The notes beneath the pieces are model-generated. The model saw nothing but the letters and a program-made list of their open reading frames with translations, was not told the origin of the DNA and did no database searches. Positions 1-11,198 of a DNA stretch of 11,198 nt are shown piece after piece. Both the position numbers and the translations under genes were made by a program. Position 1 is the stretch's first letter, and the number at the start of each line of letters is the position of its first letter. Source of the stretch: Thermotogota bacterium (lineage in GTDB: Bacteria > Thermotogota > Thermotogae > Petrotogales > Petrotogaceae); the NCBI GenBank assembly GCA_051748045.1, contig JBNJGY010000055.1:1-11198 (forward strand). The letters run 5' to 3'.

Positions 1-1155
1 TTCTTCGTTTGTTGGAACAACCATTAATTTAACTCTTGAGTCTTCAGTTGATACGATTTTTTCTTCACCTTTAAAATCATTAATTTCTTTATCAATTTTT
101 ACACCTAAATAGCTAAGGTAATTTTCTGCTATTTCTTCTCTCATTATAGGTGAATTTTCTCCAACGCCAGCAGTAAATACTATTGCATCTACACCGTTCA
201 TAGCAGCTGCATAAGCACCGATGTATTTTGCGATTCTGTATTCGTAAATATCAAAAGCCATCCTTGATACTTTTTCACCTTCTATAGCGTTATCTTCAAT
301 ATCTCTCATGTCAGAATATTTTTTTGTTACTCCCAACATACCAGATTTTTTATTCAAGATATTCAACATTTCTTTTGGAGTTATTTCTTCTTCTTTACAT
401 ATGAATTCTATTATAGCAGGATCCAAATCTCCACTTCTTGTTCCCATTGCTAGCCCTTCTAATGGTGTGAATCCCATTGATGTGTCAATAGATTTACCGT
501 TTTTAACTGCAGCTACAGAAGCACCATTTCCAATATGACAAGTGATAATTTTTAGATCTTCTGGTTTTTTACCTAAAACATCAGCTGTTCTTTTTGCAAC
601 GTATCTATGTGATGTTCCATGGAAACCATATCTTCTTACTTTATATTTTTCATAATATTCATATGGAATTGCATATAAATAAGATGTTTGTGGCATTGTT
701 TGGTGGAAGGAAGTATCAAAAACACCAACTTGATCGGCGTTTGGTAATAATTCCATAGATGCTTTTATTCCCATTACATTTGCTGGGTTGTGAAGTGGAG
801 CCAAGAAAGACATCAATTCAATAGTATCTAATACTTCTTTATTGATTCTAACAGAAGAAGCAAATCTCTCTCCACCGTGAACAACTCTGTGACCCACAGC
901 ATCAATTTCTTCTAATGATTCTAATACACCGTGATCTGAAGAAACTAATAAATCTAGTACCATTTTAAGACCTTTTTCATGGTCTGGTATATCATCTTCA
1001 ATTATATTTTTTTCTCCATTTACTTTGTGGACAATTCTTGAGCCATCAATACCTATTCTTTCAACTAATCCTTTAGCCAAAACATTTTCGTTTTCCATGT
1101 TCAATAATTGGTATTTGATTGAAGAGCTTCCTGAGTTTATAACTAATACTTTCAT
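1..1155 (-). CDS. ackA: Acetate kinase (3' end truncated by the window edge; absent from the ORF track)
   Basis: Manual translation of the reverse strand from ATG at 1155 gives MKVLVINSGSSSIKYQ...GHRVVHGGE...LAPLHNPAN...FDTSFHQTMP...YGFHGTSH...CHIGNGAS...DTSMGFTPLEG...FTAGVGENS...VVPTNEE, all canonical acetate kinase motifs. SD AGGAGG at 1163-1168. Confidence 0.97.
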   Translation of the reverse strand, partial: MKVLVINSGSSSIKYQLLNMENENVLAKGLVERIGIDGSRIVHKVNGEKNIIEDDIPDHEKGLKMVLDLLVSSDHGVLESLEEIDAVGHRVVHGGERFASSVRINKEVLDTIELMSFLAPLHNPANVMGIKASMELLPNADQVGVFDTSFHQTMPQTSYLYAIPYEYYEKYKVRRYGFHGTSHRYVAKRTADVLGKKPEDLKIITCHIGNGASVAAVKNGKSIDTSMGFTPLEGLAMGTRSGDLDPAIIEFICKEEEITPKEMLNILNKKSGMLGVTKKYSDMRDIEDNAIEGEKVSRMAFDIYEYRIAKYIGAYAAAMNGVDAIVFTAGVGENSPIMREEIAENYLSYLGVKIDKEINDFKGEEKIVSTEDSRVKLMVVPTNEE

Positions 1156-1185
1156 TTCAAAACCTCCTTAGATTTTTTTCAATAA

Positions 1186-1194
1186 AGTTTATCA
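1186..1194 (-). promoter_or_regulatory. Possible extended -10 element (TGATAAACT) for ackA
   Basis: TGnTAAACT lies downstream of the glyA terminator and about 30 nt upstream of the ackA start. No good -35 is present and the region is very AT-rich. Confidence 0.3.
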
Positions 1195-1231
1195 TATTTT
1201 TTTTAACTTAATTTTACTTATTAATGTTATT

Positions 1232-1266
1232 AAAAAGAAAAAGGGAGAATTTCTCCCTTTTTCTTT
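1232..1266 (-). terminator. Intrinsic terminator after glyA (symmetric, potentially bidirectional)
   Basis: Perfect inverted repeat AAAGAAAAAGGGAGAA-T-TTCTCCCTTTTTCTTT (1234-1266) with A/T tracts on both sides. It overlaps the glyA stop codon. Confidence 0.85.
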
Positions 1267-2536
1267 ATTTTAATAGTTCTTTATATAAAGGAAATTTTTT
1301 GGCTAAATCTTTTACTTCTGTAATTATTTCTTTCTGAATGATTTCGTCTATAGATCCTTCATCGTCTTTTACATTTTTAGCAACTTTTGCAATTAATTTT
1401 GCTATAGTTTTCATTTCTTCTTCTTTCATTCCCCTTGTAGTTAGTGCAGGTGTTCCGACTCTAATACCTGAAGTGACAAAAGGTGATCTTTGTTCTTTTG
1501 GTACTGTGTTTTTGTTAACTGTTATATGACATTTTTCAAGTCCTTTTTCCATAGCTTTTCCTGTAACGTCTAAATTGGTTAGATCTATCAATAACAGATG
1601 TGAATCAGTTCCTCCAGAAACAATTTGCATACCATTATTTTCTAATTCTTCGCCTAATGTTTTAGCATTCATTACAACTTGTTTTTGGTACATTTCAAAT
1701 TCTGGTTCTAAAGCTTCTTTGAAAGCAACAGCTTTTGCAGCTATTACATGTTCTAAAGGTCCACCCTGTATTCCAGGGAAGATGGCTTTATTTACAGCTT
1801 TGTATATTTCTTTATCATTAGTTAATATCATTCCACCTCTTGGTCCTCTCAATGTCTTATGAGTTGTAGTTGTTACGACATCAGCGTAATCTAAAGGATT
1901 AGGGTAGATTCCTGCAGCAACTAATCCAGCAAAATGAGCCATATCAACCATTAGTAAAGCATCTATTTCATCTGCGATTTCTCTGAATTTTTTGAAATCT
2001 ATTATTCTCGCATAAGCACTTCCACCAGCTACTATGATTTTTGGCTTGTTTTTTAATGCTACTTCTCTAACTTCGTCATAATCAATTATTCCTGTATCTT
2101 CATTAACACCATATGATACAACGTTGTATAAGTTTCCAGAGAAGTTAACTGGAGATCCGTGAGTTAAATGTCCACCGTGAGATAAAGACATTCCCATGAA
2201 TGTATCTCCTGGTTTAAGAAGAGCAAAATAAACTCCCATGTTAGCTTGAGAACCTGAATGTGGTTGAACGTTTGCATATTTTGCATTGAACAACTCTTTA
2301 GCTCTATTTCTTGCTAAGATTTCTCCTTTATCTACAACTTGACAACCACCATAATATCTTCTTTTTGGGTATCCTTCAGCATATTTGTTAGTTAAAACAC
2401 TTCCCATAGTTTCCATAACAGCTATAGATGTGAAGTTTTCTGAAGCTATAAGTTCTAATCCGAACTCTTGTCTTTCCAATTCTTCGTTGATGATATCATA
2501 AATTTCTGGGTCGGACTTTTTAACATTTTCCCACAT
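1265..2536 (-). CDS. glyA: Serine hydroxymethyltransferase
   Basis: Motifs [59 protein letters not shown] (PLP lysine), FPGIQGGP and SGIRVGTPA. The start is moved from GTG 2545 to ATG 2536 (MWENVK) because the SD AAGGGGTG at 2543-2550 lies 6 nt upstream of it. Confidence 0.98.
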
Positions 2537-2577
2537 GGTTTTCACCCCTTCTTATTTAATAAAATATATTCATTCAT

Positions 2578-2583
2578 ATTATA
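2578..2583 (-). promoter_or_regulatory. Possible -10 (TATAAT) of the glyA promoter
   Basis: Perfect TATAAT on the - strand about 40 nt upstream of the glyA start. The -35 at canonical spacing is weak (TTTTAT). Confidence 0.35.
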
Positions 2584-2623
2584 AACCAAAGGTTAAAAAA
2601 ATAAAACTACTCGATTAATGTGA

Positions 2624-2657
2624 ATATGAAATCTCTTTCATGAAATTTTTTTCATAT
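2624..2657. promoter_or_regulatory. Tandem palindromic candidate operator (two ATGAAA-N4-TTTCAT boxes)
   Basis: ATATGAAA-TCTC-TTTCATGAAA-TTTT-TTTCATAT: two 16-bp dyads (2626-2641 and 2640-2655) overlapping by 2 nt, in the divergent glyA/operon intergenic region. Confidence 0.5.
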
Positions 2658-2712
2658 CGCCTTTATTTAACCATAATCCTATTTAATTCCCCATATGTTA
2701 TCTCTATGGGTT

Positions 2713-2741
2713 TTGTGATTTAATGTAAATTTGACTATAAT
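2713..2741 (+). promoter_or_regulatory. Sigma70-type promoter of the aminotransferase-buk-ptb-vor operon
   Basis: -35 TTGTGA (2713-2718), 17-nt spacer, -10 TATAAT (2736-2741). SD AAGGAGGT precedes ATG 2785. Confidence 0.7.
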
Positions 2742-2784
2742 AAATATAGAAGGGAAAAATTATTCATAAGGAGGTAATTCTATA

Positions 2785-4020
2785 ATGAATTATGAATCAA
2801 AATTATCATGTGTGGCTCGTGGAATTAAATCAAGTATTATAAGAGAACTTTTGAAGGTAGCAAATGACCCAGGTATGATTAGTTTCGGAGGGGGAGTACC
2901 AGATCCTGATACATTCCCTAGACATAAAATGGCAGAAATTGCAAAAAACATTATTGAAAACGAATATAAATTCGTTCTTCAATATGGAACAACAGAAGGC
3001 GACCCTGAATTAAAACAGGGTTATATGGATTTACTAAAGAAATATGAAAATATCGATTGGTTAGAGTATGACAACATGGTTATAACTGTTGGTTCTCAAC
3101 AAGCATTGTATTTAGTTGGAATGACATTTTTAGATGAAGAATCTTATTGTGCTGTAAGTAGACCAATATACCTTGGAGCTGCTAGTGCATTTCTTCAAAG
3201 GAATCCAAAGTTTATAAATGTTCCTTTATTAAAGGATGGAATTGATCTTGATTATTTAGAAAGTGAATTGGAAAAATTAGAAAAAGAAGGAAATATAGAT
3301 AAATTCAAATTTACTTACGTAGTATCTAATTTCCATAACCCAGCTGGAGTTTCAATGAATTTGGAAAAAAGGCAAAGATTAGTTGAGTTATCAAAAAAAT
3401 ATGATTTCATAATCATAGAAGATGACCCATATGGTGCGCTTAGATTTGAAGGTGAAAAAGTAGATACAATATATTCAATGGCACCAGATAGAACGCTTTT
3501 ATTAAATACTTTTTCAAAAGTATTATCACCAGGACTGAGATTGGGAGTAGTAATTGGACCTACAGAACTTGTTAGAAGAGTTACAATGGTTAAACAAGCA
3601 GCTGATTTATGTACTCCATCACTAACTCAAAGATTAGCCGCTAAATTTATAAATGAAAATGATCTCATGGAAGAAATTAAGCCAACTATTGAATTATATG
3701 GCGAAAAGAAAGATTCTATGATGGAAGCTATGAAAAAACATCTAGGAGATATCTCTGGAATAGATTGGACATATCCTGAAGGTGGGTTATTCACATGGGT
3801 AACACTGCCAGAAGGTTTTGACACAATGGAAATGTTTGAAATTGCAAAAGAAGAAAAAGTTCTTTATATTCCTGGAGAAGCTTTTTATGTAGATGAACCA
3901 GATAGCAATACAATGAGAATATCTTTCTGTTTACCAACTCACAAAGAGATTGATGAAGGAATGGCTAGATTAAGAAGATCTATAGATAGATATGCCAAAG
4001 AAAAAGGTCTTGAATTATAG
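2785..4020 (+). CDS. PLP-dependent class I aminotransferase (LysN/ARO8-like; aromatic, branched-chain or 2-aminoadipate type)
   Basis: SSIIRELLK, ISFGGGVPDP, LQYGTTEG, GSQQAL, NFHNPAG, IEDDPYG, TFSKVLSPGLRLG (PLP lysine), PEGGLF and MRISF. There is no N-terminal HTH, so it is not a MocR regulator. Confidence 0.9.
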   Translation: MNYESKLSCVARGIKSSIIRELLKVANDPGMISFGGGVPDPDTFPRHKMAEIAKNIIENEYKFVLQYGTTEGDPELKQGYMDLLKKYENIDWLEYDNMVITVGSQQALYLVGMTFLDEESYCAVSRPIYLGAASAFLQRNPKFINVPLLKDGIDLDYLESELEKLEKEGNIDKFKFTYVVSNFHNPAGVSMNLEKRQRLVELSKKYDFIIIEDDPYGALRFEGEKVDTIYSMAPDRTLLLNTFSKVLSPGLRLGVVIGPTELVRRVTMVKQAADLCTPSLTQRLAAKFINENDLMEEIKPTIELYGEKKDSMMEAMKKHLGDISGIDWTYPEGGLFTWVTLPEGFDTMEMFEIAKEEKVLYIPGEAFYVDEPDSNTMRISFCLPTHKEIDEGMARLRRSIDRYAKEKGLEL

Positions 4021-4031
4021 GAGGTTTATTG

Positions 4032-5099
4032 ATGTACAAAATTCTGACAATTAATCCTGGATCAACCTCAACAAAAGTAGCACTTTTTGAAGATGGAAAT
4101 ATGATTGCTTCTGAAAATCTTGAGCATAAAACTGAGGAATTGAAAAAATATGATAACATAATGGATCAAATAGATTTCAGGAAAAAAGCAATTATAAATT
4201 TTATTAACAAAAACGGTGTTGGAATAAACGATTTACATGCCATATCTGCTAGAGGTGGAATTTTACCTCCTCTAAGAAGTGGTACTTATAAAGTAAATGA
4301 AGAAATGGTTCATTATTTACAATTTGAAGCAAAAGTTGAACACGCTTCTAATTTAGCAGCAGTAATAGGCTATCAAATTGCAGATAATTCTATACCAGTT
4401 TATATTACGGATCCTGTTTCAGTAGATGAATTTAAAGATGAAGCTAGAATATCTGGAAATTCAAAATTAGAGAGATATAGTCAATTGCATACCTTAAATA
4501 TGAAAATGGTTGCAAGAAGATCAGCTGAAGAAATTGGTAAAAATTATAATGATTCTAATTTTATTATAGTACACCTTGGTGGAGGTATATCAGTTGGTGC
4601 TCAAGAAAAAGGTAAAATAATTGACGTAAATAATGCGAATGATGAGGGTCCATTTAGCCCTGAAAGAAGTGGAGAGCTTCCTATGGGTGATGTTGCAAAA
4701 ATGGCCTTTTCTGGAAAATATAATTTTAAACAAATGAAAAAAAGATATATTGGTAACGGTGGATTGGTAGGATACTTAGGTACAAATGATCTTAGAGAGG
4801 CGCTTAAAAAAGCAGAAAATAATGACAAGGCTAAATTAGTAGTCGATGCTATGGCTTATCAGATATCAAAAGAAATAGGAGCTATGGCTACAGTGTTAAA
4901 AGGTGACATAGATGCTATAGTTATAACTGGAGGTCTTGCTAATTCTGAAAAATTTATATCAATGATAAAAGAAAGAGTATCTAAACTTGGATTAATTATG
5001 GTTTATCCTGGTTCATATGAAATGGAAGCATTATGTCAAGGTGCATTAAGAGCGTTGAATAATTTTGAAAAACCATTAGTTTGGAAAAAAGAGGTGTAA
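4032..5099 (+). CDS. buk: Butyrate kinase / branched-chain carboxylic acid kinase (paralog 1)
   Basis: INPGSTSTK, ARGG, EHASNL, DPVSVDE, HLGGGISV, GPFSPERSG, TGGLA and EMEAL. ATG 4032 is preferred over TTG 4029 given SD AGGAGGT at 4019-4025. Confidence 0.93.
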   Translation: MYKILTINPGSTSTKVALFEDGNMIASENLEHKTEELKKYDNIMDQIDFRKKAIINFINKNGVGINDLHAISARGGILPPLRSGTYKVNEEMVHYLQFEAKVEHASNLAAVIGYQIADNSIPVYITDPVSVDEFKDEARISGNSKLERYSQLHTLNMKMVARRSAEEIGKNYNDSNFIIVHLGGGISVGAQEKGKIIDVNNANDEGPFSPERSGELPMGDVAKMAFSGKYNFKQMKKRYIGNGGLVGYLGTNDLREALKKAENNDKAKLVVDAMAYQISKEIGAMATVLKGDIDAIVITGGLANSEKFISMIKERVSKLGLIMVYPGSYEMEALCQGALRALNNFEKPLVWKKEV

Positions 5100-5103
5100 T
5101 GAA

Positions 5104-6003
5104 ATGATTAAAAAGCTTAGAGAACTCATCGATTTAGCTTCAAAATTTGATAGAAAAAGAAAAGTAGCCGTAGCTGTTGCTGAAGATGACGTTGTTCTTC
5201 AAGCAATTAATGAAGCAGTAGACCTTAATGTATGTGAAGCTGTTCTTTTTGGTGATGAAAATAAGATTAAAGAAATTCTAAAAAATAAGAAAATTGATGA
5301 AAATAAATTTGAAATTAAAGGTTTTGATAATAAAAAAGATGCAATAAAGGCTGCTATAAAATCTGTATCTGATGGAGAAACAGATTTACCTATGAAAGGT
5401 AAGATTACAACAGGAGAATTATTATCAGTTTATCTTAAAGAAGAATATGGATTAAGACAAAAAGGTACTATGAATTTAGTAAGTGTTTTTGAGGTACCTA
5501 CTTACCCTAAACCAATAATAATGACAGACGGTGGAATGGTGATCGCGCCAACATTAGAACAAAAGGTAGATTCAATAAATAACGCAGTTGGAATTTCGCA
5601 TAAATTAGGATTAGAAAATCCAAAGGTAGCAGTTATTGGAGCGATAGAAAAAGTAAATCCTAAAATGCCAGCTACTTTAGATGCAGCTGTTTTAGTCCAA
5701 ATGAATAGAAGAAATCAAATAAAAGGTTGTTTAGTTGATGGTCCTTTTGCTATGGACAATGCTATCTCAAAAGAAGCAGCAAAACATAAAGGTATAATTA
5801 GTGAAGTTGCTGGAGATGCAGATATACTAATAATGCCAGATATAGAAGCTGGGAATATTTTTTATAAGTCTATGGTTTTTTTAGGTAATGCGAAAATAGC
5901 AAGTACCATTCTTGGAGGTAAAAAACCCGTAGTTTTAACTTCAAGAGCAGACTCAAACGAAGCTAAATTATTATCAATAGCCTTGTCAGTGGTTATGTCA
6001 TGA
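5104..6003 (+). CDS. ptb: Phosphate butyryltransferase (phosphate acyltransferase, PTA/PTB family)
   Basis: MKGKITT, TDGGMVIAP, PKVAVI, EKVNPKMPATLDA, DGPFAMDNAIS, VAGDADILIMPDIEAGNIFYK and PVVLTSRAD. It is 299 aa and sits between two buk genes. Confidence 0.93.
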   Translation: MIKKLRELIDLASKFDRKRKVAVAVAEDDVVLQAINEAVDLNVCEAVLFGDENKIKEILKNKKIDENKFEIKGFDNKKDAIKAAIKSVSDGETDLPMKGKITTGELLSVYLKEEYGLRQKGTMNLVSVFEVPTYPKPIIMTDGGMVIAPTLEQKVDSINNAVGISHKLGLENPKVAVIGAIEKVNPKMPATLDAAVLVQMNRRNQIKGCLVDGPFAMDNAISKEAAKHKGIISEVAGDADILIMPDIEAGNIFYKSMVFLGNAKIASTILGGKKPVVLTSRADSNEAKLLSIALSVVMS

Positions 6004-6015
6004 GGAGTGGTTTGA

Positions 6016-7083
6016 GTGTTTAAAATATTAGTAATTAATCCTGGATCAACATCATCTAAATTAGCTATTTATGAAGATGATCAAGAAATTTTAAATGAAA
6101 CAGTAAGACATTCATCTGAAGAAATTGGTGAATTTAATGATATACCTAGCCAATATGAGTTCAGAAAAAAAGTCATAGAAGAATTTTTAAATAAATCTGG
6201 ATATCCATTAAGTAGTTTTTCTGCTATTATCGGAAGAGGAGGCCTTCTAAGGCCTATACCTGGAGGCATTTACTCAGTAAATGAAGATATGATGAAAGAT
6301 TTAAAATCTTCAAAATATGGAGAGCATGCTTCAAACTTAGGTGGGTTAATCGCACATGAATTAGCTAGAAGTGTTGATATTGAAGCTTTTATAGCTGACC
6401 CTGTTGTTGTTGATGAAATGATGGATGTAGCTAGAATATCTGGACATCCTGACTTTGAAAGAAAATCAATTTTTCATGCACTCAATCAAAAAGCAATTGC
6501 TATGCAATTAGCTGATAAATTAAATAAAGATTATAAAGAATTGAATTTAATAATTGTTCATATGGGTGGAGGAATTTCTGTTGGAGCCCATAAAAAAGGA
6601 AAAGTTGTAGATGTAAATAATGCTTTAGATGGAGATGGACCATTTACTCCAGAAAGATCTGGAACTTTACCTTTAACAGGATTCATGAAATTATGTTTTT
6701 CAGGAGAATATGAATTAGCTGATGTGAAAAAAATTCTAAAAGGAAAAGGTGGATTAGTATCATATTTAGATACTAATGATGCCCAAGAAGTTCAAATTAT
6801 GGTAAAAGATGGAAATAAAAAAGCAGAAGTTGTTTACAAAGCATTAGCATTTCAAATAGCAAAATGGATAGGGAAAATGTCAACCGCCATGAACTTCGAA
6901 GTTGATGCAATAGCATTAACGGGTGGAGTTGCTTATGATCAAACTATGATGGATAAATGGATTAAAGAAAGAGTTGATTTTATCGCTCCCGTTTATGTTT
7001 TTCCAGGAGGCGATGAAGAAAGAGCACTAGCAATGTCTGCTTTTAGAGCATTAAAAGGTGAGCAGAACATAAAAACATACTGA
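6016..7083 (+). CDS. buk2: Butyrate kinase / branched-chain carboxylic acid kinase (paralog 2)
   Basis: GTG start with SD AGGAG overlapping the ptb stop. Motifs INPGSTSSK, GRGGLLRP, EHASNLG, SIFHALNQKA, HMGGGISV, NNALDGDGPFTPERSG and TGGVA. Confidence 0.93.
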   Translation: MFKILVINPGSTSSKLAIYEDDQEILNETVRHSSEEIGEFNDIPSQYEFRKKVIEEFLNKSGYPLSSFSAIIGRGGLLRPIPGGIYSVNEDMMKDLKSSKYGEHASNLGGLIAHELARSVDIEAFIADPVVVDEMMDVARISGHPDFERKSIFHALNQKAIAMQLADKLNKDYKELNLIIVHMGGGISVGAHKKGKVVDVNNALDGDGPFTPERSGTLPLTGFMKLCFSGEYELADVKKILKGKGGLVSYLDTNDAQEVQIMVKDGNKKAEVVYKALAFQIAKWIGKMSTAMNFEVDAIALTGGVAYDQTMMDKWIKERVDFIAPVYVFPGGDEERALAMSAFRALKGEQNIKTY

Positions 7084-7092
7084 GGTGTTTAG

Positions 7093-7761
7093 ATGATAGA
7101 AAAACATAAAGTTAATGTATTTATAGGGATGTTTGGATCTGGAAAGACAGAAATATCTATAAATACAGCCTTAAAGCTTAAAGATAAATATGATAATGTT
7201 GCTATTGCTGATATTGATACAATAAGTCCTTATTACAGGACTAGAGACGAAATAGATTATTTAACTAACGAAGGTATAAAAGTAATAACCCCACCAAGAC
7301 AATATATGCATGCAGATGTTCCTATTATACCACCAGCAGCTGGAGGGTATATTCAGAATCCAGATTATAAAATAGTATTAGATGTAGGTGGAAATGACGA
7401 TGGGGCAATTGTATTAGGTTCTTTAAATAATTTTCTTAAAAACTCAGATTCAGCAGTATATTTTGTTATAAATACTTTTAGACCTTTTACTGATGAAAAA
7501 AACAAAATAATTGGGCATATTGAAAGATTGTCTGCAAAAGCAAGATTAGATATTGATTATTTAGTTTCAAATGCAAATGTTATGAATGATACTACAAATG
7601 ATCACATCAAAAAAGGTGAAGAATTAGTAGAAGAGGTTTCAACAGAATTAAATATTCCAATAGCATTTACAGTAGTAGATGAAGAACAAAAAGAAAATAT
7701 AAATACAAAATATAAAAAATTTCCCATAAGAAGGTTTATGAAAAAAACATGGGACCTATAA
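7093..7761 (+). CDS. Uncharacterised P-loop NTPase (MinD/ParA/CobQ-like nucleotide-binding domain)
   Basis: Walker A GMFGSGKT near the N-terminus, ADIDTISPY (switch I-like), Walker B-like IVLDVGG and VINTFRP. Confidence 0.8.
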   Translation: MIEKHKVNVFIGMFGSGKTEISINTALKLKDKYDNVAIADIDTISPYYRTRDEIDYLTNEGIKVITPPRQYMHADVPIIPPAAGGYIQNPDYKIVLDVGGNDDGAIVLGSLNNFLKNSDSAVYFVINTFRPFTDEKNKIIGHIERLSAKARLDIDYLVSNANVMNDTTNDHIKKGEELVEEVSTELNIPIAFTVVDEEQKENINTKYKKFPIRRFMKKTWDL

Positions 7762-7773
7762 GGAGGGACAGAG

Positions 7774-7995
7774 ATGGAGCATAAAAATCTCGTTGAAATT
7801 GACCAAGAAAGATGTAAAGGTTGTGGATTGTGTATAGATGCTTGTCCAAAAAATGTTCTTGGTTTTTCAGAAGGATTCAACGCTAAAGGTTACCATCCAG
7901 CAGAAGTACAAAGACAGGATGATTGTATAGCATGTGGATTCTGTTATCAAATGTGTCCTGATGTGTGTATAGAAGTAAAAACTTTAGCAAAATAA
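7774..7995 (+). CDS. 2x[4Fe-4S] ferredoxin-like delta subunit of 2-oxoacid:ferredoxin oxidoreductase
   Basis: Two CxxCxxCxxxCP motifs (CKGCGLCIDACP and CIACGFCYQMCP). It lies directly upstream of the alpha subunit and has SD AGGAGG. Confidence 0.93.
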   Translation: MEHKNLVEIDQERCKGCGLCIDACPKNVLGFSEGFNAKGYHPAEVQRQDDCIACGFCYQMCPDVCIEVKTLAK

Positions 7996-8012
7996 TGAGG
8001 AGGGACATATAA

Positions 8013-9071
8013 ATGGCTGAAAAAGTAATGGTAAAGGGTACTGAAGCGATAGCTGAAGCTGCTTTGAGAGCAGGTTGTAAATTATATTATGGTTACCCTA
8101 TAACACCACAAAGTGAATTAACTGAATATATGGCAAGAAGATTACCAGAAATTGATGGTACATTTTTACAAGCAGAAAGTGAAGTGGCAGCAGTTAATAT
8201 GATTTATGGTGCCGCTTGTACTGGTAAGAGAGTTATGACATCAACTTCTTCACCAGGTTTCTCTTTGATGCAAGAAGGAATGTCTTATATAGCAGGAGCA
8301 GAATTACCTTCTGTTTTTGTTAATGTAGTAAGAGGTGGACCAGGTTTAGGAGATATTCAACCAGCTCAATGTGATTATTTCCAAGCAACAAAAGGTGGTG
8401 GCCATGGTGATTATAAATTAATTGTTTATGGTCCAGAATCATTGCAAGAAGCTGTAGAATTAACAGTTAAATCATTCGATGTTGCAGATAAATATAGAAC
8501 ACCTGTTTTGATTTTAGCGGATGGTATGTTAGGACAAATGATGGAACCAGTTAGCTTTCCAGATTTTGTGGATGAAAAAACATTACCAGATCATTCAGAA
8601 TGGGCAATGAGAGGAACAAATATGGAAAGAGATGCTAATAGAGTCACTTCTTTCAATATAGATCCTTATGGTTTAGAAGAAATGAACCATAGATATCAAG
8701 CAAGATATAAAGAAATAATTAAAAATGAAAAAATGTATGAAGAGTTTATGTTAGAAGACGCAGAGATTGTTATTGTTGCATACGGTACAATCGGAAGAAT
8801 AGCTAAATCTGTTGCTAAAATGGCAAGAGAAAAAGGAGTAAAAGCTGGTGTATTTAGACCAATTACTCTATGGCCTTTCCCTTACGAAGAATTAGCAAAA
8901 TACAACGATCAAGCAAAAATGTTCTTCACCGTGGAAATGTCAGCAGGACAAATGATTGAAGATGTTAGATTAAGTGCAAATGGTAAAAAACCTGTTGAAT
9001 TCTATGGAAGAATGGGTGGAGTAGTTCCTACACCAGGTGAAATTTTTGCTAAACTAATGGAATTAGTATAA
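8013..9071 (+). CDS. vorB: 2-oxoacid:ferredoxin oxidoreductase alpha subunit (2-ketoisovalerate oxidoreductase VorB-like)
   Basis: GYPITPQSE, QAESEVAA, TSTSSPGFSLMQE, RGGPGLG, KGGGHGD, FRPITLWPFP and VEMSAGQM. The context with buk/ptb supports the VOR-type call. Confidence 0.88.
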   Translation: MAEKVMVKGTEAIAEAALRAGCKLYYGYPITPQSELTEYMARRLPEIDGTFLQAESEVAAVNMIYGAACTGKRVMTSTSSPGFSLMQEGMSYIAGAELPSVFVNVVRGGPGLGDIQPAQCDYFQATKGGGHGDYKLIVYGPESLQEAVELTVKSFDVADKYRTPVLILADGMLGQMMEPVSFPDFVDEKTLPDHSEWAMRGTNMERDANRVTSFNIDPYGLEEMNHRYQARYKEIIKNEKMYEEFMLEDAEIVIVAYGTIGRIAKSVAKMAREKGVKAGVFRPITLWPFPYEELAKYNDQAKMFFTVEMSAGQMIEDVRLSANGKKPVEFYGRMGGVVPTPGEIFAKLMELV

Positions 9072-9089
9072 TTTAAGGAGGGGAAAATA

Positions 9090-9845
9090 ATGGCTTATAC
9101 AGATAAATTTAAAGGCCCTCACGCATTAAGCGGAAAAGAATTCACTTACTGTCCTGGTTGTCATCATGGGATTGTTCACAGACTTGTGGCAGAAGTATTA
9201 GATGAATTAGGTATAGAGGGTAAAACTATGATGGTAGCACCTGTTGGATGTTCAGTTTTTGCATATGAATTTTTTAATGTAGATGGAACTGTGGCAGCTC
9301 ACGGAAGAGCACCAGCAGTAGCAACAGGAATGAAAAGAGCAATGCCTGATAAAACAGTTTTCACATACCAAGGTGATGGTGATTTAGCAGCTATTGGAAC
9401 AGCAGAAATTATTCATGCAGCAAATAGAGGAGAAAAAATCACTACAATATTTGTTAATAATGCAATATATGGAATGACAGGTGGTCAAATGGCGCCTACT
9501 TCATTATTAGGTATGAAAACAACTACATCTCCTTATGGAAGAAAAATTGAAACTGAGGGTCATCCTATGCATGTTTCAGAAGTACTAAAAGAACTTGATG
9601 GTGTTGCTTATTTATCAAGAACAAAAGTAAATACACCACAAGATGTTATAAAAACTAAAAAAGCAATAAAAAAAGCATTTTTAGCTCAAGAAGAAGGGGT
9701 AGGTTTTGGAATAGTTGAAATTTTATCAACATGTCCAACTAACTGGGGTTTAACTCCTATTGAATCAAACAAATGGTTAGAAGAAAACATGTTAAAAGAA
9801 TATCCTTTAGGTGTATTTGTTGATAAAGTTGGTGATTCTAAATGA
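9090..9845 (+). CDS. 2-oxoacid:ferredoxin oxidoreductase beta (TPP-binding) subunit
   Basis: YCPGC, PVGCS, HGRAPAVATG, TPP motif QGDGD...NN, YGMTGGQ and STCPTNWG. Confidence 0.92.
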   Translation: MAYTDKFKGPHALSGKEFTYCPGCHHGIVHRLVAEVLDELGIEGKTMMVAPVGCSVFAYEFFNVDGTVAAHGRAPAVATGMKRAMPDKTVFTYQGDGDLAAIGTAEIIHAANRGEKITTIFVNNAIYGMTGGQMAPTSLLGMKTTTSPYGRKIETEGHPMHVSEVLKELDGVAYLSRTKVNTPQDVIKTKKAIKKAFLAQEEGVGFGIVEILSTCPTNWGLTPIESNKWLEENMLKEYPLGVFVDKVGDSK

Positions 9846-10384
9846 GTTTCCATAATTCAATCATAGCAGGTTTTGGTGGACAAGGTGTAATGCTTTTTGG
9901 ACAAGTTTTATCTTATTCAGCAATGGTTGATTCAAAATATACTACTTGGCTTCCGTCATACGGACCAGAAATGAGAGGAGGAACAGCTAATTGTACAGTG
10001 GTTGTTTCCGACGAATATATCGCATCGCCTGTAGTTGATAAACCAAATGAAGTTGTTGCTTTCAACATTCCTTCTATGACTAAATTTGAACAAGAAATGG
10101 AAGAAGGTGGAATTTTAATTCTTAATTCTTCAGTTATAGATAGAGAACCAACTAGAAAAGATATAACAATTATAAAAGTTCCTGCAAATGAAATTGCAGA
10201 CAAACTTGGAAATACAAGAATACAGAATATGGTTATGCTGGGTGCTTATTTAGGAGCAACAGAAGCTGTTTCTTTAGAGGCTGTAAGAAAAGCTTTAGAA
10301 AAGAAATTAACTGGTAAAAAGGCAGCATTGATTGACATAAACATGAAAGCTATTAAAGAAGGAATGGAAATTTCTAAAAAATAA
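9842..10384 (+). CDS. 2-oxoacid:ferredoxin oxidoreductase gamma subunit
   Basis: AGFGGQG, PSYGPEMRGG, ILNSS and NMVMLGA. The ATGA overlap with the beta subunit stop suggests translational coupling. Confidence 0.92.
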   Translation: MSFHNSIIAGFGGQGVMLFGQVLSYSAMVDSKYTTWLPSYGPEMRGGTANCTVVVSDEYIASPVVDKPNEVVAFNIPSMTKFEQEMEEGGILILNSSVIDREPTRKDITIIKVPANEIADKLGNTRIQNMVMLGAYLGATEAVSLEAVRKALEKKLTGKKAALIDINMKAIKEGMEISKK

Positions 10385-10385
10385 T

Positions 10386-10415
10386 AAAAAGGATGTGCTT
10401 AGCACATCCTTTTTT
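10386..10415. terminator. Bidirectional intrinsic terminator between the operon and the convergent tRNA-Ser
   Basis: Perfect inverted repeat AAAAAGGATGTGCT-T-AGCACATCCTTTTT, giving U tracts on both strands. Confidence 0.9.
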
Positions 10416-10417
10416 CT

Positions 10418-10506
10418 TGGCGGAGAGAGTGGGATTTGAACCCACGGATGGGGTTGCCATCACACGCGTTCCAGGCGTGCGCCTTCGGCCACTCGGCCAT
10501 CTCTCC
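10418..10506 (-). tRNA. tRNA-Ser (anticodon GGA), CCA encoded
   Basis: GGAGAGATGGCCGAGTGGCCGAAGGCGCACGCCTGGAACGCGTGTGATGGCAACCCCATCCGTGGGTTCAAATCCCACTCTCTCCGCCA. Acceptor GGAGAGA/TCTCTCC, discriminator G, anticodon arm CACGC-CTGGAAC-GCGTG, long variable arm GATGG/CCATC and T arm GTGGG-TTCAAAT-CCCAC. Confidence 0.97.
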
Positions 10507-10518
10507 ATAACAAAATTT

Positions 10519-10547
10519 ATTATATCATAATTTACCCAAAAGGTCAA
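10519..10547 (-). promoter_or_regulatory. Sigma70 promoter of tRNA-Ser
   Basis: TTGACC (10542-10547), 17-nt spacer ending in TGA (extended -10), then TATAAT (10519-10524), 12 nt upstream of the mature tRNA. Confidence 0.85.
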
Positions 10548-10548
10548 T

Positions 10549-10578
10549 AAAAAAAGGACACGCAACGAATGCATGTCC
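10549..10578 (-). terminator. Intrinsic terminator (- strand)
   Basis: GGACATGCA-TTCGT-TGCGTGTCC-TTTTTTT: a 9-bp stem with one G-U pair that works only on the - strand, followed by U7. Confidence 0.85.
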
Positions 10579-10640
10579 AATGTATAAAGATCCCCTAAAG
10601 TTCCCCCTGTTTCAATACTATTAATTGCTTACCTTATCGT
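10549..10640 (-). ncRNA. Candidate ~90-nt small RNA of unrecognised family
   Basis: Bounded by a near-consensus promoter (10645-10673) and an intrinsic terminator (10549-10578). It contains no complete ORF with a credible start and carries two G-rich motifs, AGGGGGA and AGGGGA. Confidence 0.55.
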
Positions 10641-10644
10641 AATA

Positions 10645-10673
10645 ATTTTATCATATAATGTCATAAAAGTCAA
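10645..10673 (-). promoter_or_regulatory. Sigma70 promoter driving the candidate sRNA
   Basis: TTGACT (10668-10673), 17-nt spacer ending in TGA (extended -10), then TAAAAT (10645-10650). Confidence 0.75.
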
Positions 10674-10677
10674 CAAA

Positions 10678-11163
10678 TCAAAATAAGAAATTCAATCCGA
10701 TAACTACATTTGGTTTAAACCCATATTCAGAAAATGATCCTATAGATTCTTTCATAGAAGCTTCTAATAAAATATGTCTTGTAAAGAAAACACCTGTTCC
10801 TAATAATAGTTTATATTCTTTATAATTCAAAAACTCTGTGACTGAATTTTCTACAGAAAGTTTTAACTGAAGAAAAGAAACTCTTTCTCTAATAAAATAA
10901 ATACCTAAATTTACATCACTTAAATTTAATTCTTTATTAGGATAAATGGTAATTTTATCAAAATCTTCTTCAATATTATTTTCCAACCCGATTGGAATAT
11001 AAGCATACAAAAAACCTAAATCAGTTCTAAAATTCAAATTAAAATTTGAAAATTCTTCAATATTTCTGTTTTTAAAATCTGCTTCAAAAGCTACTCCCCA
11101 ATCCATTGAGAAAGTAGTTAAACTTAAAACAATGATAAACAAAAAAATTAAACCTTTCTTCAT
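10678..11163 (-). CDS. Hypothetical secreted protein, probable small outer-membrane beta-barrel
   Basis: SD AGGGGGT upstream, Sec signal peptide MKKGLIFLFIIVLSLTTFS, alternating hydrophobic/polar segments and C-terminal VVIGLNFLF ending in Phe. Confidence 0.7.
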   Translation of the reverse strand: MKKGLIFLFIIVLSLTTFSMDWGVAFEADFKNRNIEEFSNFNLNFRTDLGFLYAYIPIGLENNIEEDFDKITIYPNKELNLSDVNLGIYFIRERVSFLQLKLSVENSVTEFLNYKEYKLLLGTGVFFTRHILLEASMKESIGSFSEYGFKPNVVIGLNFLF

Positions 11164-11198
11164 AATATTATACCCCCTACAAATTATAGTTTTCCTTC

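Follow-up and report, generated by a model that had tools for sequence, protein, structure and literature searches.

A G-rich candidate small RNA beside tRNA-Ser(GGA) in Petrotogaceae and its putative pairing with a C-rich RNA of the phylum Thermotogota

The DNA analyzed here, referred to as the window, is an 11,198-nucleotide (nt) contig of a Thermotogota bacterium in the family Petrotogaceae (JBNJGY010000055.1 of assembly GCA_051748045.1, positions 1 to 11,198). On its minus strand, directly upstream of a tRNA-Ser(GGA) gene, lies an element, termed the G-RNA, that is probably a real, conserved and previously undescribed non-coding RNA of ~90 nt. The G-RNA contains two G-rich boxes complementary to two C-rich boxes of a second predicted RNA, termed the C-RNA, which is encoded elsewhere in the same genome and recurs through the phylum. 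The reading preferred here, with moderate confidence, is that the G-RNA would serve as a sponge or partner of this phylum-wide C-RNA. In such a mechanism the G-RNA would be a stand-alone transcript made from a strong sigma-70-type promoter and ending at its own terminator, and its two single-stranded G boxes, CAGGGGGA and GGGGAUCU, would jointly base-pair with the C boxes AGAUCCCCC and CCCCCCUG. A G-RNA bound to both C boxes would, as a sponge or decoy, set the amount of free C-RNA that reaches its mRNA targets, and the pairing may possibly trigger mutual decay of the two RNAs. That both RNAs are produced, that they meet and which of them controls the other is what we infer from their sequences. 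The parts of the unit, with the tRNA that follows it, are these:

10673-10645, minus strand: predicted G-RNA promoter, with the -35 box TTGACT at 10673-10668, a 17-nt spacer, TG at 10653-10652 and the -10 box TAAAAT at 10650-10645
10549..10638, minus strand: G-RNA, a predicted ~90-nt non-coding RNA, with a start at ~G10638 and an end in the U run, both predicted
10602..10609, minus strand: G box 1, CAGGGGGA, complement of CCCCCUG, the 3' C tract of the C-RNA
10588..10595, minus strand: G box 2, GGGGAUCU, complement of AGAUCCCC, the 5' C tract of the C-RNA
10549..10578, minus strand: predicted intrinsic terminator of the G-RNA, with a stem-loop at 10578-10556 and U7 at 10555-10549
10519..10547, minus strand: predicted promoter of tRNA-Ser(GGA), TTGACC-17-TATAAT with extended TG, scoring 11/12
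10418..10506, minus strand: tRNA-Ser(GGA) gene (58.2 bits), the downstream neighbor of the G-RNA in four genera

A previous sequence-only reading had proposed this unit from a near-consensus promoter just past the stop codon of a 161-amino-acid (aa) gene, a 9-bp stem with U7 about 90 nt farther on, a separate promoter for the tRNA, and the motifs AGGGGGA and AGGGGA, and each of these was found in place. In a consensus scan of the window the G-RNA promoter scores 10/12 with extended TG and starts 4 bases beyond the stop codon of the 161-aa open reading frame (ORF), which ends at 10678, while the tRNA promoter was recovered separately at 10547-10519. The two motifs lie in the body of the G-RNA at 10608-10602 and 10596-10591. 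The nine pairs of the terminator stem include five G-C and one G-U, and the terminator abuts the -35 box of the tRNA promoter. Both the transcription start near 10638 and the 3' end near 10549 are predictions. Matches to promoter and terminator consensus by themselves are not above chance, with 35 promoter-like sites in the window against 53.7 +/- 6.9 in shuffled sequence and six terminator-like sites against 4.6 +/- 2.1. Over the G-RNA element, the same scan found no promoter-like or terminator-like site on the plus strand, and the hairpin has a U run on the minus strand only, so that a C-rich plus-strand transcript of this DNA was rejected. A small ORF within the G-RNA was likewise rejected, since no start codon stands at a usable distance past either G box; the sole frame listed there, 10580-10374, crosses the terminator and the tRNA.

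The G-RNA unit rises above this chance level because it is conserved, in the identity of its body, in the pairing of its terminator and in its recurrence among genera. In a DNA search of 41 related genomes, full-length matches to a 381-base query came only from within the genus, from its other two species G002 (96%) and G001 (84%), the genome of the window being G000, and the remaining genomes matched the tRNA part alone. In a three-way alignment, identity between G000 and G001 is 92% over the 5' part and G tracts of the G-RNA, 83% over its promoter (100% with G002) and 84% over its terminator. The adjacent coding sequence reaches only 73% and the tRNA promoter region 64%. Pairing of the terminator stem is retained in G002 and G001 via G-U and A-U changes.

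When the 330 bases upstream of tRNA-Ser(GGA) were compared at 20 loci, a unit of the G-RNA type, in which TTGACA-17-TGnTAnAAT is followed by AU-rich sequence, two G tracts and then a hairpin and U run, was present at seven of them, in four genera (g1, n=3; g8, n=1; g5, n=1; g3, n=2). The other 13 loci, from g6 (n=5), g9 (n=2), g10 (n=1), g2 (n=1) and the sister family f2 (n=4), had no such unit. A fifth genus, g4, has the unit elsewhere in the genome and not beside tRNA-Ser(GGA). In total, the architecture occurs in 5/10 genera and 8/26 genomes of the family, with absence from the other five genera as judged by the exact pattern AGGGGGN{2,9}GGGGAT only. The conservation of promoter, G tracts and terminator that the sequence-only reading had called for checking extends over five genera, with synteny to tRNA-Ser(GGA) in four, and together with the signals described above it supports the proposal of a probable independent non-coding RNA. 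What persists from genus to genus is limited to the G tracts and the bases directly next to them, with CA before tract 1 in 4/5 genera and AU after tract 2 (GGGGAU) in 4/5 genera. Broader pattern searches yielded little of use. The pattern CAGGGGGAAN{1,7}GGGGAT matched at least 121 metagenome loci and, among the matches listed, two had a terminator-like site within 60 nt; these two were rejected as homologues, being unlike the unit and of G+C content 0.59 and 0.47. The loose pattern AGGGGN{3,12}GGGGR, run over the order, gave counts similar to those of its reversed control among the matches listed, and two pattern matches in g6 were rejected, one being coding and the other having no promoter-and-terminator context.

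Conservation between genera also bears on the simplest competing explanation, in which there is no separate RNA: the mRNA of the 161-aa gene would simply extend through this region as its 3' untranslated part and end at the hairpin, and the resemblance to a promoter would be due to chance. This would agree with the lack of enrichment of promoter-like sites over shuffled sequence (35 vs 53.7), and with the absence of a terminator between the stop codon at 10678 and the hairpin at 10578. Public metatranscriptomes (nine runs from three studies, in the form of contigs, with 0.09-0.27 of sampled words present) give no usable cover of 10549-10640. In four runs compared with window positions 7000-11198, letter-identical contigs, from salt-lake metatranscriptomes, cover the oxidoreductase genes; the depth in 10500-10639 is explicable by contigs with loose ends that carry tRNAs of other organisms and stop at 10506-10508, and bin 10640-10779 has no cover. 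The explanation fails, however, because a promoter of the same spacing and with extended TG is conserved in five genera in which the upstream genes differ. The upstream gene of g8 is followed, ahead of the G-RNA promoter, by a hairpin and T run of its own, and the G-RNA body is more conserved than coding sequence, so that a mere 3' end appears highly improbable. A related suggestion, that the G-RNA has its terminator in common with the upstream mRNA as do small RNAs (sRNAs) derived from 3' ends, appears to fit this genus only, where the promoter starts at 10673 and no terminator stands between the stop at 10678 and that of the sRNA; in g8, g5, g3 and g4 the upstream neighbor is another.

The G-RNA belongs to no family described in Rfam 15, RsaOG/RsaI included. 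At gathering thresholds, Rfam 15 returned only the tRNA over the window, in agreement with the sequence-only reading, which had not recognized the element as 4.5S/SRP, 6S, tmRNA, RNase P or a riboswitch. With the threshold relaxed to E up to 10 over 10380-10760, the best non-tRNA match on the element was ncr1241, whose 22.5 bits fall short of its gathering score of 60 and whose alignment covers the G-RNA terminator only.

The putative partner of the G-RNA emerged from the pattern AGGGGGN{2,9}GGGGAT, which matched 22/26 genomes of the family, mostly at another locus that is highly conserved. Read on its opposite strand, this second locus carries a promoter, the stretch ...AGAUAGAUCCCCCUAUCCCCCCUGAGAUAAACCCAG..., a CCGGAUCC/GGAUCCGG hairpin and eight U, which together define the C-RNA:

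G000, contig C22, 30648-30730 (locus L025, 1491-1573), plus strand: predicted C-RNA, ~80 nt, with two C tracts, AGAUCCCCCUAUCCCCCCUG, and the C boxes AGAUCCCCC and CCCCCCUG

The C-RNA carries two or three C tracts (CCCCCUAUCCCCC...). Over 18 copies from seven genera the mean column identity is 80%, with both C tracts invariant. The terminator stem CGGAUCC is also invariant over the seven genera. A cmscan of six loci, five of them with a C-RNA, gave no Rfam match at E up to 1, RsaE included. A covariance model built from the C-RNA alignment places it in 46/51 genomes and 16/16 genera of the order, the sister family being among them and several genera having a second copy; the C-RNA locus of Marinitoga lauensis is letter-identical to that of G041, so that the family of the window is probably the one that contains Marinitoga. 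When one genome per species of all prokaryotes was scanned for the exact pattern, 58 stretches were found, 29 of which belong to Thermotoga, Pseudothermotoga, Fervidobacterium, Thermosipho, Marinitoga, Kosmotogaceae or Thermotogota, and all 29 show the conserved RNA context. None of six non-Thermotogota stretches inspected has it. A related pattern matched 76 of 151 genomes of the phylum, mostly as the antisense of a commoner C-RNA form (TCAAGGGGGATAGGGGG). The C-RNA looks like a conserved regulator through the phylum Thermotogota that would pair with ribosome-binding sites (RBSs) of the GGGGG type.

The promoters of the C-RNA share a conserved GTTAACA box ~9-10 nt upstream of the -10 hexamer, with additional boxes of the sequence GTTAAC, GTAAC or TGTTACGTTAACA farther upstream (L025, ~1431-1490, and equivalent flanks). 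These boxes look like an operator for a regulator. No box of the GTTAACA type was found in the G-RNA promoters.

The two RNAs are complementary in both boxes and in the bases that flank them. CAGGGGG with CCCCCUG would form a 7-bp helix and GGGGAUCU with AGAUCCCC an 8-bp helix, both Watson-Crick and in the correct antiparallel order. The duplexfold energy of the full G-RNA with the C-RNA is -34.9 kcal/mol, and the cofold gain over the monomers is -21.9 kcal/mol at 37 C, -20.1 at 55 C and -15.3 at 70 C, a gain matched by 0/200 shuffles of the non-terminator part (shuffle mean -5.5). Accessibility of the tracts in G000 is moderate, the two G tracts having mean unpaired probabilities of 0.45 and 0.61 and the two C tracts of 0.80 and 0.61. 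CAGGGGG occurs at 38 sites in the genome and GGGGATCT at 12, and the two boxes occur in order within 20 nt at two places only, the G-RNA and the antisense strand of the C-RNA itself; ~0.002 such places would be expected by chance, a figure that is indicative only, the motifs having been picked after the pairing was seen. Two tracts of at least four G followed by a terminator were found at three genome sites (a tRNA end, the G-RNA and one other), the G-RNA being the one RNA-like unit recognized among them, and the mirror scan for C-rich units gave five. The best of these five for the G-RNA is the main C-RNA, at -28.4 kcal/mol, with the other four at -19.0 to -24.0. Those four are candidate sRNAs in their own right, each with two tracts of at least four C and then a terminator, and three of them (on C13, C66 and C99) are 85-88% identical in the sister species G001:

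G000, contig C8, ~29374-29480, plus strand: further C-rich candidate sRNA, resembling the second copies in G001 and G009
Contig C13, ~9150-9040, minus strand: further C-rich candidate sRNA, conserved in G001
Contig C66, ~3748-3640, minus strand: further C-rich candidate sRNA, conserved in G001
Contig C99, ~4660-4570, minus strand: further C-rich candidate sRNA, conserved in G001

Complementarity of the boxes to a C-RNA extends to g8 and g5; in g3 it involves a paralogue, and in g4 it is weaker. In g3, the G-RNA CUCAAGGGG is paired with a C-RNA paralogue, CCCCCUUGAG, where the other genera have CAGGGGG with CCCCCCUG. The CAA of g3 box 1 is answered by UUG in the paralogue, an extra A against an extra U, which counts as a single event; the CCCCCUUGAG form is also present in the sister family and in Thermotoga-like genera. 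In a cross matrix, the G-RNA of g3 favors its own paralogue b, at -31.9 kcal/mol vs -29.5 or weaker.

The preference for a sponge or partner role is tempered by several observations that weigh against it. When the G tracts were held fixed and the other core bases shuffled 1000 times, the observed energy was reached by 143/1000 shuffles for G000, 116/1000 for G001, 56/1000 for g8, 108/1000 for g5 and 465/1000 for g4, and only g3 stood out, with 11/1000 for the better of its two paralogues. The complementarity of the flanks is thus modest, and contact between G and C tracts supplies most of the energy; because the genera share ancestry, these tests are not independent and their figures cannot simply be combined. 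The G tracts pair with any C-rich RNA, and of the four further C-rich candidates none shows flank specificity. A crude genome-wide duplexfold search for partners of the C-RNA seed put the G-RNA at rank 56 among 7786 merged windows, in a ranking that admits long loopy duplexes and is not discriminating. In g4, the G-RNA pairs better with the C-RNAs of other genera (-28.7 kcal/mol) than with its own (-23.8). Five of the ten genera of the family have a C-RNA and no G-RNA detectable by the exact pattern, and since half of the genera lack a detectable G-RNA, the sponge would be dispensable.

Three roles had been put forward by the sequence-only reading: a sponge for C-rich sRNAs, a decoy for the protein CsrA, and a mimic of the Shine-Dalgarno (SD) sequence. 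The first is now favored, with a conserved C-RNA in the same genome complementing both boxes and their flanking bases. As a CsrA decoy, the G-RNA would titrate CsrA through the GGA motifs of its boxes in the manner of CsrB and RsmY/Z, and part of this idea stands. The genome encodes CsrA (PF02599, 58.2 bits, above the cut-off, at C131:2223-2384), GGA occurs in both G boxes in 4/5 genera, and the two GGA sites are ~11 nt apart, close to the lower spacing limit of dual-site CsrA binding. The remainder fits less well. The csrA gene lies within a flagellin-fliW-csrA cluster, an arrangement in which the antagonist of CsrA is the protein FliW. There are only two GGA sites, and they lie outside conserved hairpin loops, the predicted structures varying between genera. 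Box 1 of g3, AAGGGGUUC, has no GGA and yet keeps its complementarity to a C-RNA, and the conserved flanks (CA before box 1 and AUCU after box 2) fit pairing with the C-RNA and not a GGA motif. The window has no Rfam match of the CsrB or Rsm type. The likeness to CsrB, RsmY and RsmZ thus extends to a non-coding RNA with GGA motifs in a genome that encodes CsrA, and differs in the two motifs only, their position outside conserved loops, the g3 box without GGA and the placement of csrA beside fliW. A decoy for CsrA is therefore regarded as unlikely.

As an SD mimic, the G boxes would tie up 30S subunits by binding the anti-SD of their 16S rRNA or, in a variant, the unit would be a leader coupled to tRNA-Ser(GGA) by read-through of the terminator. 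GGGGG does form the SD core upstream of 175 of 1813 long ORFs (~10%), and the adjacent 161-aa gene itself uses AGGGGGU, which upholds part of the suggestion. Predicted pairing of the boxes to the anti-SD, however, amounts to -9.1 kcal/mol vs -28.4 to the C-RNA; for this comparison the anti-SD was derived by complementing the commonest upstream words, and the assembly does not contain the 3' end of the 16S rRNA. The conserved flanks mismatch this derived anti-SD, and neither box has a start codon at a usable distance downstream. Coupling to the tRNA would be consistent with the synteny in four genera and with a terminator that abuts the tRNA promoter, but the unit of g4 is not beside the tRNA. 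Both forms of this explanation are judged improbable.

A further alternative, also rather unlikely, is that the G-RNA is a trans-acting regulator itself, with a G-rich seed or an AU-rich 5' part directed at mRNAs, and that the match to the C-RNA is incidental or one target among others. The whole 5' half of the G-RNA is conserved within the genus, beyond the G boxes; the genome encodes Hfq; and contiguous complements of the G-RNA include a 14-nt perfect match at C15:14912 and several of 13 nt. A 14-nt match is, however, about what chance would give for a 60-nt query against 4.8 Mb (by our own estimate roughly one is expected), and no mRNA site in the genome has both boxes. Between genera, moreover, it is the boxes that are conserved and not the 5' half.

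Among 1813 ORFs of at least 150 aa, GGAGG is found within 22 bases upstream of 449 and GGGGG of a further 175 (~10%). The C tracts pair with GGGGG and not with GGAGG, and the C-RNA could therefore address a subset of RBSs. Two tracts of at least four G occur in none of the 1813 gene-upstream regions, so the G-RNA does not resemble an ordinary RBS. The longest perfect complement of the C-RNA seed in G000 is 13 nt (AUCUCAGGGGGGA) at C42:6332 on the plus strand, where it covers the RBS of a 415-aa gene with a MerR helix-turn-helix and a weak methyltransferase match; other complements of 10-11 nt lie at the starts of a CheC/CheX-like gene, an ABC-2 permease gene and a 566-aa ORF. Seven loci from two genera that belong to another family (L175-L180 and L184; handles G108-G112, G119, G121 and G122) share a conserved mRNA leader, GUAUCUCAAGGGGG-N4-6-GGGGG, which stands ~7-10 nt before a GTG or TTG start codon and precedes an ORF for a small hydrophobic protein that begins MSYVEFIIF.... 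Fourteen nt of the GUAUCUCAAGGGGG leader are complementary to the C-RNA of those genomes, which makes it a likely direct target of the C-RNA; because of this complementarity, G sites of two tracts recur as likely C-RNA partners.

Comparison with known systems places the G-RNA closest to the G-rich sponges of the Bacillota. According to a published study (PMC8216469), RosA (S345) of Bacillus subtilis is a sponge of RoxS and FsrA that lowers the level and activity of RoxS and, by pairing, neutralizes the seed of its partner. Like RosA as described there, the G-RNA would be a stand-alone sRNA with its own promoter of the sigma-A/sigma-70 type and two G-rich regions for a C-rich partner, features that in the present case are predicted. 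It differs in having no sequence or Rfam relationship to RosA, in belonging to Thermotogota and not Bacillota, and in its predicted length of ~90 nt; RosA is in addition repressed by CcpA, according to the same study, whereas the G-RNA promoter showed nothing resembling an operator. In the account given there (PMC8216469), RsaI (RsaOG) of Staphylococcus aureus is likewise a stand-alone RNA with two G-rich regions, which bind the C-rich RsaE, RsaD and RsaG. It has a C-rich region for mRNA targets as well, whereas the G-RNA has no C tract and gives no Rfam match to RsaI at E up to 10. With its putative promoter and terminator of its own and two G regions complementary to a C-RNA of the same genome, the G-RNA shares these sequence features with sponges of the RosA and RsaI kind, a class defined by function and not by homology.

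The C-RNA resembles RoxS/RsaE in its small size, in its two or three unpaired C tracts (mean unpaired probability 0.61-0.93) and terminator, and in its complementarity to G-rich RBSs. In RNAs of the RoxS/RsaE type, UCCC motifs stand in separate loops, whereas the tracts of the C-RNA are of 5-7 C and in tandem (CCCCCUAUCCCCCC); it is, moreover, Thermotogota-wide and without an Rfam match.

A fuller and more tentative picture, which at present seems somewhat doubtful, is that the Thermotogota-wide C-RNA is a selective anti-SD look-alike for the ~10% of genes with a GGGGG RBS, and that one branch of the Marinitoga-containing family evolved a dedicated sponge beside tRNA-Ser(GGA), strongly and probably constitutively expressed and co-evolving with the C-RNA. 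If true, a deep-branching phylum would possess an sRNA-sponge circuit that either is older than RoxS-RosA and RsaE-RsaI of the Bacillota or has converged with them. If the sponge reading preferred above is right, a phylum-wide C-rich regulator absent from Rfam, several lineage-specific C-rich paralogues and a G-rich antagonist would make up a complete small circuit, and sponging of C-rich sRNAs by G-rich ones, so far known from Bacillota, would either arise repeatedly or be ancient. The G-RNA/C-RNA pair could also explain why a subset of genes keeps a GGGGG RBS while the commonest SD words contain GGAGG. In the literature searched, which left subscription journals outside its coverage, no paper was found on base-pairing small RNAs in Thermotogota, Thermotogae or Thermotoga. 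In a paper on the genome organization of Thermotoga maritima, small RNAs are predicted from Rfam only (PMC3636130).

The remainder of the window near the G-RNA offers a few minor observations. The product of the 161-aa ORF (10678-11163, minus strand) has no Pfam match. It has a hydrophobic N-terminus and the C-terminal end ...GLNFLF, and from this sequence could be a small outer-membrane beta-barrel protein. The RBS of its gene, AGGGGGU, is of the GGGGG type and a possible pairing site of the C-RNA. On the other side of the tRNA, a four-gene 2-oxoacid:ferredoxin oxidoreductase cluster occupies 7774-10384 on the plus strand, with subunits that are 4Fe-4S ferredoxin-like, POR_N/PFOR_II, TPP-binding and POR gamma, and between it and the tRNA stands one further feature:

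10386..10414, both strands: palindromic hairpin of 13 pairs with A and T runs, which matches itself on both strands

This palindrome falls between the 3' end of the tRNA and the stop of the gamma-subunit gene, whose ORF ends at 10384, and is likely a two-way terminator. The oxidoreductase cluster and the tRNA converge on it as a common terminator.

One genome of another family (G058, loci L186 and L187) contains repeated long palindromes, GGGGGACAGGTCCCTTGATTA...TAATCAAGGGACCTGTCCCCC, with G-rich words alongside; they lie at several contig ends and look like a dispersed repeat.

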